A stretch of 64,000 nt of DNA from a virus (lineage: Duplodnaviria; Caudoviricetes). The stretch's first letter is position 1, and the number at the start of each line of letters is the position of its first letter. The notes under the pieces were generated by a model. The model was not told the DNA's origin, did not search any database, and worked only from the letters and a program-made list of their open reading frames with translations. The stretch spans positions 1 to 64,000 of the IMG/VR virus record IMGVR_UViG_3300020112_000191; one strand, given 5' to 3'. The position numbers were made by a program, and so were the translations under genes. Positions 7,934 to 25,547 of the stretch are shown here, piece by piece.

Positions 7934-8002
7934 AATCCACTGATGAGTCTTTGAAAATTAAGACGAAACAGCTCAGCCAGAAATGGTTTGGCTGTCTGGA
8001 TT
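7934..8002 (+). ncRNA. hammerhead ribozyme, type I (HH1); cleavage after C7996
   Basis: stem I AAUCCA/UGGAUU, CUGAUGA, stem II GUCUU/AAGAC, GAAA, stem III CAGCU/GGCUG, GUC triplet. Confidence 0.93.
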
Positions 8003-8028
8003 ATAAACAATTAAAAACAGTACTAATT

Positions 8029-8220
8029 ATGGAAAAGTATGTTATTAAAAAGGTAAATTCGGACGGAATGTCTGAAAAGTACCTAAGTCTAATCACTACA
8101 GCGTCAATTACTTGGACAGCTGATAAGAAACGCATTCGATTCTTTAGCCAAGAGACTGCTATGGTTATGGCAGAATGGCTCAAGAAAGAAGGAATTAATT
8201 GTATAGTACATTCAATCTAA
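8029..8220 (+). CDS. hypothetical protein (MEKYVIKK...)
   Basis: ATG 33 nt after the HH1 cleavage site with an A-rich leader. Confidence 0.65.
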   Translation: MEKYVIKKVNSDGMSEKYLSLITTASITWTADKKRIRFFSQETAMVMAEWLKKEGINCIVHSI

Positions 8221-8231
8221 AGAGAAAGCCT

Positions 8232-8663
8232 ATGTGTCTTAGATCAGCTGGAAAAATTCACACTGCAAAGCGTGATATTATAGTGTATAAGACGCTTGCA
8301 ATTGGAAAGAATTACAACATCTTCACTCAATACAGGCTAATTGAGCTTACAAATTACAGCGATGAGCTAATTGGCAAGAAGATGGAGAGTTAGCTAATTG
8401 ATTACAAGGATAATTGGTATAGTCCATCTGCAAAGAGAAGCTATACCACCACCAAAGTTGACTATGGAATTCATTCTTTCGTTAATCTTAATGAATGCCA
8501 ACTTGAGGCGGATCGCTTAAAGAATAGGCATTATTTTAAATTCTATGGTATGCTAGTAGTTGAATGTATTATACCCAAAGGAGCCAGATACATTAAAGGC
8601 AAATGGGGCCCTAATAGCGTCGATAGCATTGCCTCGGAAAAACTAATTATCAAAACACAGTAA
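8232..8663 (+). CDS. hypothetical phage protein, paralog of 14064-14453, with one in-frame TAG (8391-8393)
   Basis: MCL..IIVYK before the TAG and GIHSF..ECIIPKG..ASEKL after it both align with the paralog. Confidence 0.75.
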
Positions 8664-22153: not shown

Positions 22154-23135
22154 TATAATCTGGAAGGCAGATGAAGAAACATACAGGAATACTGGAATAC
22201 ATTATAGCGATATTAGCGACTTTATTTCCACAGGCTTCCGTCAATCATGGGAAAAAGTCAGAATCCAGACAAAAGCGTTGACAATTGGATCAGCTGTCGA
22301 TTGTATTCTTACAGATGGCGGCTGGGAAGAGTTTGAAAAGCGTTATTACCTTAATTCAGAATCTATAGATGAGAAAGTTGTCGGTTTGTATCAATACGCT
22401 GGTGGTCTTAAGTATAATGACATTAGCGACGATGTTAAAATTGAGTACCTTGATAATATTTCTTATTGTCAGAAGATGAAGCCAGAGACTCGCCTTGAGA
22501 GATTAAATGCTCTCCAGGGCCAGTATGACACATATTTCAACAATAAGGATAAACAAGCTGTAACTCTTGAAGAGTACGATGTGATTCGTAGCTGTGTAGA
22601 TGCAGTTAAGAAGGATCCTAAGCTCTGGTTTATGGAGAAGTCTGGCAATCGTACAGAAGGCGATATAGAGATCTATTTTCAGCCTAAATTTAAGACTACG
22701 ATAAATAATGTCGAATACGCAATTATGTTCGATGTATTACTCGTAAATACGTACACGAAGACTATCTATCCAATGGATCTCAAGACAGCTTCTGTAGAGG
22801 AATGGAATTTCGTTGACAACTTTAAGAAGTATCATTACGATGTTCAGGCTCATCTCTACACAGCTGTGCTTACCAAGATTCTCGAAGACAACGGAATGAA
22901 TGATTTTACTATGGAGAATTTCACATTCATAGTAGTCGGTAAACAGACATTCACGCCTCTTACATGGGAGTATGAAGACTCTCGTCGTTATGAAGAGACA
23001 ATAAAGTATCCTACTTATGTATCTAAGCCAGTTCTGGAATTGGGCCATCAGCTTGCTATTTATAAAGCAACAACGCCAAAAGTTCCAGTAGATATAGATA
23101 TAGAAAACAACAATTCAATTTGCAACAGACTATGA
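22140..23135 (+). CDS. PD-(D/E)XK exonuclease (RecE/ExoVIII-like)
   Basis: IGSAVD, FDVLLV..MDLKT, YHYDVQAHLY. Confidence 0.85.
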   Translation: MLLDNIIWKADEETYRNTGIHYSDISDFISTGFRQSWEKVRIQTKALTIGSAVDCILTDGGWEEFEKRYYLNSESIDEKVVGLYQYAGGLKYNDISDDVKIEYLDNISYCQKMKPETRLERLNALQGQYDTYFNNKDKQAVTLEEYDVIRSCVDAVKKDPKLWFMEKSGNRTEGDIEIYFQPKFKTTINNVEYAIMFDVLLVNTYTKTIYPMDLKTASVEEWNFVDNFKKYHYDVQAHLYTAVLTKILEDNGMNDFTMENFTFIVVGKQTFTPLTWEYEDSRRYEETIKYPTYVSKPVLELGHQLAIYKATTPKVPVDIDIENNNSICNRL

Positions 23136-25228
23136 TCAAATATTTTAAGAATCGTCAAGGAAAGAGAGAAGCATTTAATATCAGCAAGCCACATATTAAG
23201 TATCTCAAGGCTCTCAAAGAAGTTGGTGCGCTTACTCGAAACAAGATTGCTCTTAAGCAGTTCGAGAATAAGTTTATAGAAGAGGCTGGATCTTGCGACG
23301 TTATCTCAGCAGCAGCGGTGAACGCTATAGTTATGGATATGCTCAAGGAAGCTTGCGTAGATGCAGCCATAGCTTATGATCGTTATTGCCAGCAGAAGAA
23401 GCATTATCGTGATCTCGTCAAAGAGAAGAAGGCACGTATTGCAGCTTACATTAACTCAAACAATAACGCTAACGCAACAGTCGATGACAATAGTAATGTT
23501 CAGACAAAGACTGTAGGTACGCTTAATGCAGAGATCAACAAGAAGGATAATATCGCACTCAATAGAGGAATGATGATGGATAAGCTTGCTGAACTATTCC
23601 CTGATTTCGATCATAAGCAGTATTTGCGTGACCTTAAGAATCACATAATTTACAAGCACGATGAGTCAACAAGTAACTCAGGAGCGACAATGCCATATTG
23701 CGTCTCAATCTCAATGTATCCATTCATCAACAATGGACTCAAAGGATTCGGGTACAAGGCTGGCGCACCTAAACATTTACTTAGCTATTGTAGCACTTTT
23801 TGCAATCTTATATTTGCCACTGCTGCTCAGTTCGCAGGAGCTGTAGCTACGTCAGAATTCTTTGTATTCTTCGATTATTTCGTAAGAAAAGAGTTCGGCG
23901 ATGAATGGTACAAAGATGAGAAGATTAAGAAGCAGATTTGTCAGTATTTCCAGATGGTAGTTCATACTATAAATCAGCCAGCTGGCGGTCGAGGTCAGCA
24001 AGCTTGCTTCTGGAATGTGTCAATCTTTGATAGATTCTATTTCGAGTCAATGTTCTCAGGTATGATGTATCCAGATTTTACATCACCAGTATGGGATAGC
24101 ATTAGCGAGCTTCAGAAGCTATTTCTTGTTTGGTTTAGAAACGAGAAGCTGATTGTACCTATGAGTTTTCCAGTAGTAAGCTACTCAATGCTTACCGATG
24201 GCAAGGGTACTTATCTGGACGAAGATACATTCGACTTTATGTGCGATAGCTTCTCTAAGGGTGACGATAGCTTCGTTTACAACTCTGATTCAGCTGACTC
24301 TCTTGCATCATGTTGTCGTTTGAAGAATGAGATTGATACTAAGGAGTTCAATTTCACCAATGGCAATATCGGTATTCAGACTGGCTCTAAGTCGGTAATT
24401 ACCTTGAATCTGAATCGCATTATTCAGAATGAGGTTAATGGTAACGAACGCCTTGAGGATGTTGTAGATCGTGTTCATAAGTATCAGATAGCTTACAATG
24501 AGCTTATGTGGGATTCTTATAACGCTGGTTTGCTTCCTGTATATGAGTCTGGCTATATTGATCTTGATAAGCAGTTCTTGACAATAGGTATCAATGGCTT
24601 GCATGAGGCAGCTGAGTTCCTTGGACTTGAAGTTAGCGACAATGAAAAATACCAGAAGTTCTGTGATGGAATCGGTAAGCGTATATCTTTATCAAATGAA
24701 GCAGCAAATGGCATTTATTTCGGTCATAATGTAAAGTTCAACTGTGAATATGTTCCAGCCGAATCTCTTGCCGTAAAGAATTATAATTGGGATAAAGCTG
24801 ATGGTTATAAGGTTCCAGAGGATCGCAATCTGTACGCGTCTTATGTATTTATTCCATCTAAGACTACTGATCTTATGACAAGAATTCGTATGCATGGTAC
24901 TAAGTACCTCTCTTCAATGTCTGGTGGTTCAGCTTGTCATTTGAACATTGATAAGCCTCTCGACAAAGAGCAGTATAAGCAGCTGTTCTCTTATATGTCT
25001 AAGGTTGGCTGTTCGTATGCTACATTCAATCTGATATCTTCAGAATGTAATGATTGCGGCTATATCGCTAATGAGCCTCTCGAAGTATGTCCTAAGTGCG
25101 GCGGTAAGCACATTACTCCGTACACTAAGATTATTGGCTATAGAACTCCAGTAACAAGCTGGACTGAAGCTAGAAAGATTGAAGGATTTGGTTTAGGTAA
25201 TATAAAAGGTAGATATTATGGAAAGTAA
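23120..25228 (+). CDS. nrdD: anaerobic (class III) ribonucleotide reductase
   Basis: IYKHD, PYC, SCCRL, TIGING, PAESL, CNDC/CPKC, KIIGY glycyl-radical loop. Confidence 0.95.
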   Translation: MQQTMIKYFKNRQGKREAFNISKPHIKYLKALKEVGALTRNKIALKQFENKFIEEAGSCDVISAAAVNAIVMDMLKEACVDAAIAYDRYCQQKKHYRDLVKEKKARIAAYINSNNNANATVDDNSNVQTKTVGTLNAEINKKDNIALNRGMMMDKLAELFPDFDHKQYLRDLKNHIIYKHDESTSNSGATMPYCVSISMYPFINNGLKGFGYKAGAPKHLLSYCSTFCNLIFATAAQFAGAVATSEFFVFFDYFVRKEFGDEWYKDEKIKKQICQYFQMVVHTINQPAGGRGQQACFWNVSIFDRFYFESMFSGMMYPDFTSPVWDSISELQKLFLVWFRNEKLIVPMSFPVVSYSMLTDGKGTYLDEDTFDFMCDSFSKGDDSFVYNSDSADSLASCCRLKNEIDTKEFNFTNGNIGIQTGSKSVITLNLNRIIQNEVNGNERLEDVVDRVHKYQIAYNELMWDSYNAGLLPVYESGYIDLDKQFLTIGINGLHEAAEFLGLEVSDNEKYQKFCDGIGKRISLSNEAANGIYFGHNVKFNCEYVPAESLAVKNYNWDKADGYKVPEDRNLYASYVFIPSKTTDLMTRIRMHGTKYLSSMSGGSACHLNIDKPLDKEQYKQLFSYMSKVGCSYATFNLISSECNDCGYIANEPLEVCPKCGGKHITPYTKIIGYRTPVTSWTEARKIEGFGLGNIKGRYYGK

Positions 25229-25493
25229 AACAAGGTGGACTGTACTCTTGTTTTTCGCATTCATAGTTCTCAACATCGCATTTGTATTTGCAACAGCAAA
25301 GCATTATAGCGATGAGAATAAGAATATTGAAGCTCAGCTCTCTATTAAGAGGGCTGAACTCAAGGCTCACGAACTTAAATACGAAGAAGATACAGCTTAT
25401 TACAAACAAGCTATTCGTGATATGCAGTATATGCAAGATTCGCTTATTAGCGTAATTCTCGAATACGAACTAAAAGACATCCAGGAGTCTTAA
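25218..25493 (+). CDS. membrane-anchored coiled-coil protein
   Basis: N-terminal TM helix followed by a heptad region. Confidence 0.65.
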   Translation: MESKTRWTVLLFFAFIVLNIAFVFATAKHYSDENKNIEAQLSIKRAELKAHELKYEEDTAYYKQAIRDMQYMQDSLISVILEYELKDIQES

Positions 25494-25547
25494 ACATCCA
25501 CACCGACGAGACTGGACGAAACACCGCTGTGATAGCGGTGTCTGTGG
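25474..25547 (+). ncRNA. variant type I hammerhead ribozyme with kissing loop (HH4); cleavage after C25542
   Basis: CCACA/UGUGG stem I, CCGACGA, G-(ACUGGA)-C, GAAA, stem III CACCGCU/AGCGGUG, GUC; upstream hairpin loop UCCAG is complementary to CUGGA. Confidence 0.85.

Follow-up and report, generated by a model that had tools for sequence, protein, structure and literature searches.

Four hammerhead ribozyme motifs of two architectures between genes of the replication block of an uncultured crAss-like phage

The 94,233-bp IMG/VR virus record IMGVR_UViG_3300020112_000191, estimated to be ca. 97% complete, is, judging from its sequence, the genome of an uncultured phage of the crAss-like group (Crassvirales) that is closest to the Steigviridae. 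The window analyzed here is the first 64,000 nucleotides of this record, and it holds four hammerhead ribozyme motifs, HH1 to HH4, each at a junction between two genes. A descriptor scan for type I hammerheads over both strands of the whole genome returned exactly these four as credible, all on the + strand and all with a GUC cleavage triplet (Table 1). The predicted cuts are 6038, 6068 and 5440 nt apart. All four motifs have the three-helix type I topology, with helix I open and helices II and III capped, by the descriptor scan and, for HH1 and HH2, also by the minimum free energy (MFE) fold; stem I of HH3 has just 3 bp. The four lie in one + strand block of genes, 4733..47645, which contains 67 gene junctions. 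Outside this block the genome is made up of a structural block on the − strand, which wraps around the ends of the record.

The layout is the same at all four sites – a stop codon, the ribozyme, an A-rich leader of 23–41 nt, and an ATG. An initial annotation of the window had described four + strand type I hammerheads with GUC triplets and these same cut sites, each close behind a stop codon and shortly before a start codon, and had seen none in the late regions. The whole-genome descriptor scan bears out the four motifs and their predicted cuts. The distances to stop and start codons agree with the coordinates of the open reading frames (ORFs), except that helix IV of HH4 begins at about 25475, ca. 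19 nt inside the upstream ORF. The late regions are likewise free of hammerheads. In the 94 kb there is no further hammerhead or other ribozyme, either by Rfam, searched on both the window and the 30 kb outside it, or by R1, a covariance model of our own built from 49 aligned hammerheads of other phage contigs, none of them from the present phage.

Candidates for further copies were rejected. Possible fifth hammerheads were considered where GACGAAAC and ACGAAACA recur, at 6.4–6.5 kb and 29.8 kb; these places lack the CUGANGA half and have a model score of at most 4 bits. A weak R1 match in the late region (L374, 14072–14120; 16 bits, E value 0.04) was treated as noise.

Table 1. Hammerhead motifs, their flanking genes and a hairpin between HH1 and HH2, in positions of the window
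Feature	Coordinates	Strand	Remarks
Gene upstream of HH1, 251 aa	7177..7932	+	Ig-like domain match; stop 1 nt before stem I
HH1	7934..8002	+	Classic type I; cut after 7996
Gene downstream of HH1, 63 aa	8029..8220	+	No family; 32-nt leader from cut to ATG
Terminator-like hairpin with T-rich tail	12356..12378	+	Between HH1 and HH2
Gene upstream of HH2, 91 aa	13697..13972	+	Conserved in L124, L125 and L126; stop 1 nt before stem I
HH2	13974..14040	+	Classic type I; cut after 14034
Gene downstream of HH2, 129 aa	14064..14453	+	phrog_13450; 29-nt leader
Gene upstream of HH3, 134 aa	19623..20027	+	TAG stop overlaps helix IV; preceded by pRha/anti-repressor-like gene 18532–19623
HH3	20025..20107	+	Pseudoknot, RAGATH-1 type; cut after 20102
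Gene downstream of HH3, 111 aa	20144..20479	+	phrog_4264; 41-nt leader
Gene upstream of HH4, 91 aa	25218..25493	+	Follows NrdD (23132–25228); last 6 codons encode helix IV of HH4
HH4	25474..25547	+	Pseudoknot, RAGATH-1; cut after 25542
Gene downstream of HH4, 102 aa	25566..25874	+	23-nt leader; L124 orthologue preceded by terminator-like hairpin, not ribozyme

HH1 and HH2 are of the classic type I architecture. HH1 has a 6-bp stem I, the core CUGAUGA, a 5-bp stem II with the loop UGAAAAU, and a long stem III. The core of HH2 is CUGACGA, where position 7 is free to be U or C. With the core consensus taken as in PMC3088659, all core positions of both motifs are canonical (CUGANGA ... GAAA ... 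UH). The Rfam hammerhead families give HH1 and HH2 only 23–27 bits, below their gathering scores; R1 gives 67.4 bits to HH1 (E value 2.6e-18) and 57.9 bits to HH2 (E value 2.7e-15). In both cases the MFE fold is exactly the hammerhead, with a z of −3.1 for HH1 and −4.5 for HH2.

The stem II and core signature of these two motifs occurs in more than 117 IMG/VR viral contigs of 4–280 kb, and 110 of the 126 matches fold as type I. In a megablast search with HH1, the matches in the crAss-like phages cr131_1, cr272_1 and cr53_1 span this element alone. Stems I and III covary among 49 homologues – both sides have changed in 11 of 17 pairs, the rows having been preselected for pairing. Activity is very likely for both HH1 and HH2.

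HH3 and HH4 have the layout of the RAGATH-1 hammerheads: a helix IV hairpin, an A-rich linker (UUAAAAACA in HH3, UUAAACAU in HH4), helix I, a stem II of one base pair, and a long stem III. The loop of the one-bp stem II pairs with the loop of helix IV (UUCGG/CCGAA in HH3 and UCCAG/CUGGA in HH4). With those of a related contig, L124 (UCCGUA/UGCGGA and CCGAA/UUCGG), there are four different complementary pseudoknot sequences among the RAGATH-1-type copies, a pairing that covaries, and the consensus of the Rfam family RF03152 is CCAAG/CUUGG. Against this family (RAGATH-1-hammerhead) HH4 scores 72.6 bits and exceeds the gathering score of 56.3, which HH3, with 45.4 bits, does not reach. The pseudoknot architecture has been crystallized as the "PK hammerhead" (PDB 8YDC) and reported to cleave very fast; the same linker forms a minor-groove triplex in that structure (PMC11300833). 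The type I label of the initial annotation thus holds for the topology of all four motifs, but two of them are pseudoknot hammerheads, each with a change in the core.

The placement of the motifs was compared with that of 77 distinct classic-family hammerheads from other phage contigs, for which the distances to neighboring reading frames were measured. A same-strand ORF starts 15–60 nt after the cut in 78% of cases on the ribozyme strand, versus 3% on the antisense strand and 20% at random positions. An ORF stop lies at most 10 nt upstream in 58%, versus 18% antisense and 6% at random positions. On the ribozyme strand, leaders have a median length of 38 nt. Because the pattern of stop, ribozyme, short leader and ATG is strand-specific in these 77 hammerheads, it is real, and the layout belongs to the ribozyme family in phages generally, not to this genome in particular.

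The closeness of stop codon and ribozyme could also mean that cleavage is conditional. In HH1 and HH2 a ribosome at the stop codon would cover stem I, and in HH3 and HH4 it would cover helix IV together with the pseudoknot. The cut would then report on upstream translation or be timed by it, the core variants being tuned to act slowly. The positions of the four stop codons (Table 1) fit such a scheme, as does the nearby stop in 58% of the family, and Perreault et al. suggested that the slower phage variants could be regulated (PMC3088659). The abutment is explained just as well by how tightly genes are packed in phages, however, and conditional cleavage is improbable.

Relatives of the phage were found via a protein database; a primase pattern search of viral contigs gave no match. 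Only three contigs have a primase more than 55% identical to that of the present phage: L124 (65%), L125 (63%) and L126 (59%). In L124 there are three hammerheads (cuts at 3676, 7727 and 12371). The first, behind an AAA_24 gene, is of the RAGATH-1 type. The second is a classic hammerhead; it lies behind the orthologue of the 91-aa gene that precedes HH2 and is the positional orthologue of HH2. The two have stems that are wholly different yet complementary, and the flanking proteins are just 35–42% identical. The third, again of the RAGATH-1 type, follows a pRha-like gene and is at roughly the position of HH3. L125 has two classic hammerheads, which bracket its pRha-like gene. Strong terminator-like hairpins are found in relatives at junctions that hold HH3 or HH4 in the window. 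The junction of L124 equivalent to that of HH4 has a G+C-rich terminator-like hairpin with a U-tail (17860–17890), and L126 has a 12-bp hairpin at the junction equivalent to that of HH3.

Some further differences were observed in these contigs. The stem and loop of the L124 hairpin at 17860–17890 (CCUGGGAGAAAUCCUGGG) closely resemble stem III of HH3. In L125, a reverse-transcriptase gene (RVT_1; 3759–5093) is found at the junction that holds HH2 in the window, and NrdD is in two pieces, each its own ORF, which are separated by an ORF of 170 aa (13518–16595).

Beyond these contigs, three Suoliviridae references (cr131_1, NC_055902.1; cr272_1, NC_055903.1; cr53_1, NC_055889.1) have 1–4 intergenic hammerheads, which are unannotated in these genomes. 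They are always co-oriented and 0.2–1.4 kb apart – cr131_1 has three or four within 1.3 kb, and cr272_1 has two 1.35 kb apart. The crAss-like G005 has two, 2.25 kb apart. Four IMG/VR contigs of ca. 12–14 kb (L014, L030, L042 and L068) have 2–3 tandem hammerheads ca. 390–400 nt apart near the contig ends, which look like a repeated ribozyme-bounded unit.

With such a patchy distribution, the ribozymes could be neutral or selfish passengers – relics that have spread horizontally with small gene cassettes and sit in intergenic gaps without a role in expression. Near-identical ribozymes occur in unrelated large contigs, the small genes around the ribozymes shuffle between relatives, and two of the present copies have core substitutions. 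Passengers would not account for so extreme a bias in strand and in distance to stop and start codons, nor for compensatory changes that keep the structure at orthologous junctions whose flanking proteins have diverged as far as those of HH2. Nor was any paralogy found among the eight flanking genes, or any gene family that travels with the ribozymes. A passenger origin is therefore unlikely.

The four ribozymes are nearly evenly spaced, in intervals of 5.4–6.1 kb with 9–16 called ORFs each. The coefficient of variation of the three spacings is 0.049, and ca. 0.3% of random four-site placements on the 67 gene junctions of the block are equally even (nominally unusual, P ~0.003, in a test that is post hoc and on one genome). 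The initial annotation had taken this as a protein-free segmentation system that cuts the early polycistron into units of similar size and that may set stability or limit R-loops or polarity. Such a system would act like a ruler of ca. 6 kb, with its spacing under selection. L124, the closest relative, is also fairly even, with spacings of 4051 and 4644 nt. However, these are not the spacings of the window, and in L124 no further ribozyme follows the third hammerhead for at least 6.9 kb. The pair in L125 is 1.16 kb apart around one gene, L126 has no hammerhead in 14 kb, and those of the other crAss-like phages are 0.2–2.3 kb apart. Of 49 further hammerhead-bearing phage records, 43 have one canonical copy only. 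Within the window, the + strand block continues for 22 kb past HH4 without a ribozyme, the HH1–HH2 interval is split by the terminator-like hairpin at 12356, and HH3 is probably impaired. The expectation that the spacing would persist in relatives thus fails, and units of similar size are unsupported. The near-equal 6-kb spacing is most likely incidental, and a selected ruler is very unlikely. The other part of the segmentation claim fares better: motifs that are on the coding strand only, flush with a stop codon and shortly ahead of a start codon fit cutting between cistrons.

The block that carries the ribozymes encodes a Sak4/AAA_24 protein, a primase, a pRha-like protein, an exonuclease, NrdD, a DnaB-like helicase and ThyX, followed by two giant ORFs. 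It is presumably early, as its replication and nucleotide-metabolism genes suggest. The primase is at most 45% identical to that of any GenBank phage, and the major capsid protein of the phage is 61–65% identical to those of Steigviridae crAss-like phages such as cr85_1, cr106_1, cr112_1 and IAS virus. The 2568-aa ORF at 35864–43570 (+) is a homologue of the putative RNA polymerase of crAss001 (28.7% identity, E value 1e-120). A 2299-aa ORF at 47710–54609 (−) has weak matches to proteins annotated "putative RNA-polymerase subunit". Neither of these two giant ORFs has a PHROG match or a PDB sequence match.

The Bacteroidota promoter motif TTTG-N18-22-TAnnTTTG has 10 strict matches in the whole genome, all on the − strand, and 8 of the 10 precede − strand genes; the same whole-genome scan gave no strict match on the + strand replication block. 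The sites are at 140, 3440, 4959, 11881 and 14054 of the window and in the late block, and the site that ends at 14054 is antisense within the leader of HH2. Host-type promoter motifs on the − strand only, together with a phage-encoded crAss-type RNA polymerase, are compatible with long transcripts made by the phage polymerase. A sigma-70 promoter scan was uninformative, with no more matches than in shuffled sequence. When k-mers were searched for a common + strand promoter motif, only ribozyme cores and A-rich leader words were returned.

Terminator-like hairpins are found in the + strand block not only between HH1 and HH2 but also at 5478, 6380, 34006, 35777 and 47659, and these are possible extra punctuation marks. 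Two strong hairpins, 34006–34036 and 27115–27137, gave spurious Rfam matches (L20 leader, togavirus frameshift element, MicX); the first resembles an intrinsic terminator behind the gene that ends at 33998, and the second is a hairpin before the gene at 27155. There is also a palindrome, GGGAATATTCCC, at 20109–20120, 7 nt past the HH3 cut, with a near copy, GGGGATATTCCC, at 5160–5171 that precedes the first + strand gene. Each is ca. 25–35 nt upstream of an ATG, and when up to 2 mismatches are allowed there are 5 matches versus 1.35 expected. These palindromes could be an operator or a 5' hairpin.

In this lineage of crAss-like phages, hammerheads and terminator-like hairpins might together be interchangeable "non-terminating terminators", placed at chosen junctions of a block that is transcribed by the phage polymerase from non-host promoters and divided into segments of a preferred size, ca. 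4–6 kb. The copies with altered cores would then be deliberately slowed, setting the ratio of joined to separated messages. There is only a small chance that this scheme is right.

Cutting of a multi-gene transcript of the replication block between cistrons, just ahead of the next gene, is the probable role of the hammerheads. This reading draws on what is observed – the motifs, their strand, their exact placement, the conservation of that placement across the family, and compensatory evolution. As the multi-gene transcript emerges, each active ribozyme would fold right behind the stop codon of the upstream gene and cleave after its GUC. The upstream mRNA would then end in a compact ribozyme fold with a 2',3'-cyclic phosphate, a 3' cap resembling a terminator hairpin that would not have stopped the polymerase. 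The downstream mRNA would begin with a 5'-OH and a leader that is short (23–41 nt), A-rich and unstructured, which would suit Shine-Dalgarno-free initiation, as in Bacteroidota. If cleavage takes place in vivo in this way, its outcome would be to uncouple the stability and translation of neighboring groups of genes.

Several points weigh against this reading, and the first concern the cores of HH3 and HH4, neither of which has the full conserved core. HH4 has CCGACGA, with C for U4, and HH3 has GAGAC for GAAAC (A14 to G); the other core positions are intact in both. In the MFE fold of HH3, G14 pairs with the cleavage-site C17, and stem III is extended across the scissile position. Hammerheads are also missing from eight Steigviridae references, including crAss001, by pattern, RF03152 and R1; the capsid protein of these eight is 60–65% identical to that of the present phage. 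Because they are absent from these references and from L126, hammerheads are dispensable for this gene module. The terminator-like hairpins inside the + strand block mean that the block may not be one transcript. The proposed effects on mRNA stability and translation, finally, are what general RNA biology would lead one to expect.

The two core changes differ in their precedents. For U4C there is a near-identical ribozyme in a 175-kb viral contig, L318 (ca. 5480–5560). The pseudoknot hammerheads of L318 and cr131_1 (L376) are nearly identical, each with a 52-nt insert in stem III, and have C and U, respectively, at position 4, a natural U4C polymorphism. Given its U4C change, the activity of HH4 is uncertain. 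No credible natural precedent for an A14G core was found in 119 viral-contig pattern matches (there was one marginal match, with 4 bp and no pseudoknot). HH3 is probably slow or dead, because it combines A14G with a stem I of three A-U pairs and a stem III that can swallow the cleavage site.

What role hammerheads play in bacteria and phages has yet to be proven, and this genome is a tidy natural test bed, with four ribozymes in one co-directional block. The variation at its junctions among relatives, together with the family-wide rule of a stop, a ribozyme, ca. 20–45 nt and a start, allows testing of whether the ends of mRNAs in phages of Bacteroidota are set by ribozyme cleavage. Points of interest are the presence of two architectures in one block, the two natural core variants with intact pseudoknots, and the alternation of ribozyme, hairpin or nothing at the same junctions among relatives. 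A search of the available literature found no paper that describes hammerheads in Crassvirales specifically.

Several known systems resemble this arrangement in part. In the early transcript of phage T7, host RNase III cuts hairpins and leaves 5'-phosphate and 3'-OH ends. The initial annotation had likened the present sites to these. The likeness holds for function – intercistronic cuts that give a structured 3' end upstream and a defined leader downstream – but what is found here is self-cleaving ribozyme motifs rather than hairpins for RNase III. Here the RNA would cut itself and leave 5'-OH and 2',3'-cyclic phosphate ends, so that the analogy is one of function only and the motifs are not members of that family.

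The HHphage hammerhead of the haloviruses HF1 and HF2 is likewise found upstream of the start of a replication gene in a polycistronic transcript. It lies 13 nt before an early gene, compared with 23–41 nt here, and the mapped 5' end of the transcript is within 3 nt of the cut (PMC3088659). That virus is archaeal and has a single ribozyme, a different variant that needs high salt; its 5' end has been mapped, whereas the present cuts are predicted from sequence. With RAGATH-1 (RF03152; PDB 8YDC), HH3 and HH4 share helix IV, the A-rich linker, the one-bp stem II with its loop pairing, the long stem III and the GUC triplet. They differ from it in the C4 of HH4 and in the G14, the 3-bp stem I and the sub-threshold score of HH3.

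The closest likeness in arrangement is to the clustered phage hammerheads of Perreault et al. (2011), in which multiple hammerheads flank genes in prophages and, by the authors' proposal, cut long phage transcripts into mRNAs the length of an operon or a gene (PMC3088659). Nothing in the present sequence argues for circular or spliced products between successive ribozymes, and such products were not detectable in that study (PMC3088659). In both cases several co-oriented copies lie in the intergenic gaps of a phage gene block, natural core variants occur, and the same role is proposed. The earlier clusters flank single genes or short blocks, while the ribozymes here are separated by 5.4–6.1 kb and 9–16 called ORFs, and those of the relatives by 1.2–4.6 kb. 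The present phage is also crAss-like, and classic and pseudoknot architectures are mixed in one block. Both types of ribozyme are cataloged, and the arrangement has been in the literature, along with its interpretation, since 2011 – the four hammerheads are not a new kind of system, but an instance of a known one in a crAss-like phage.

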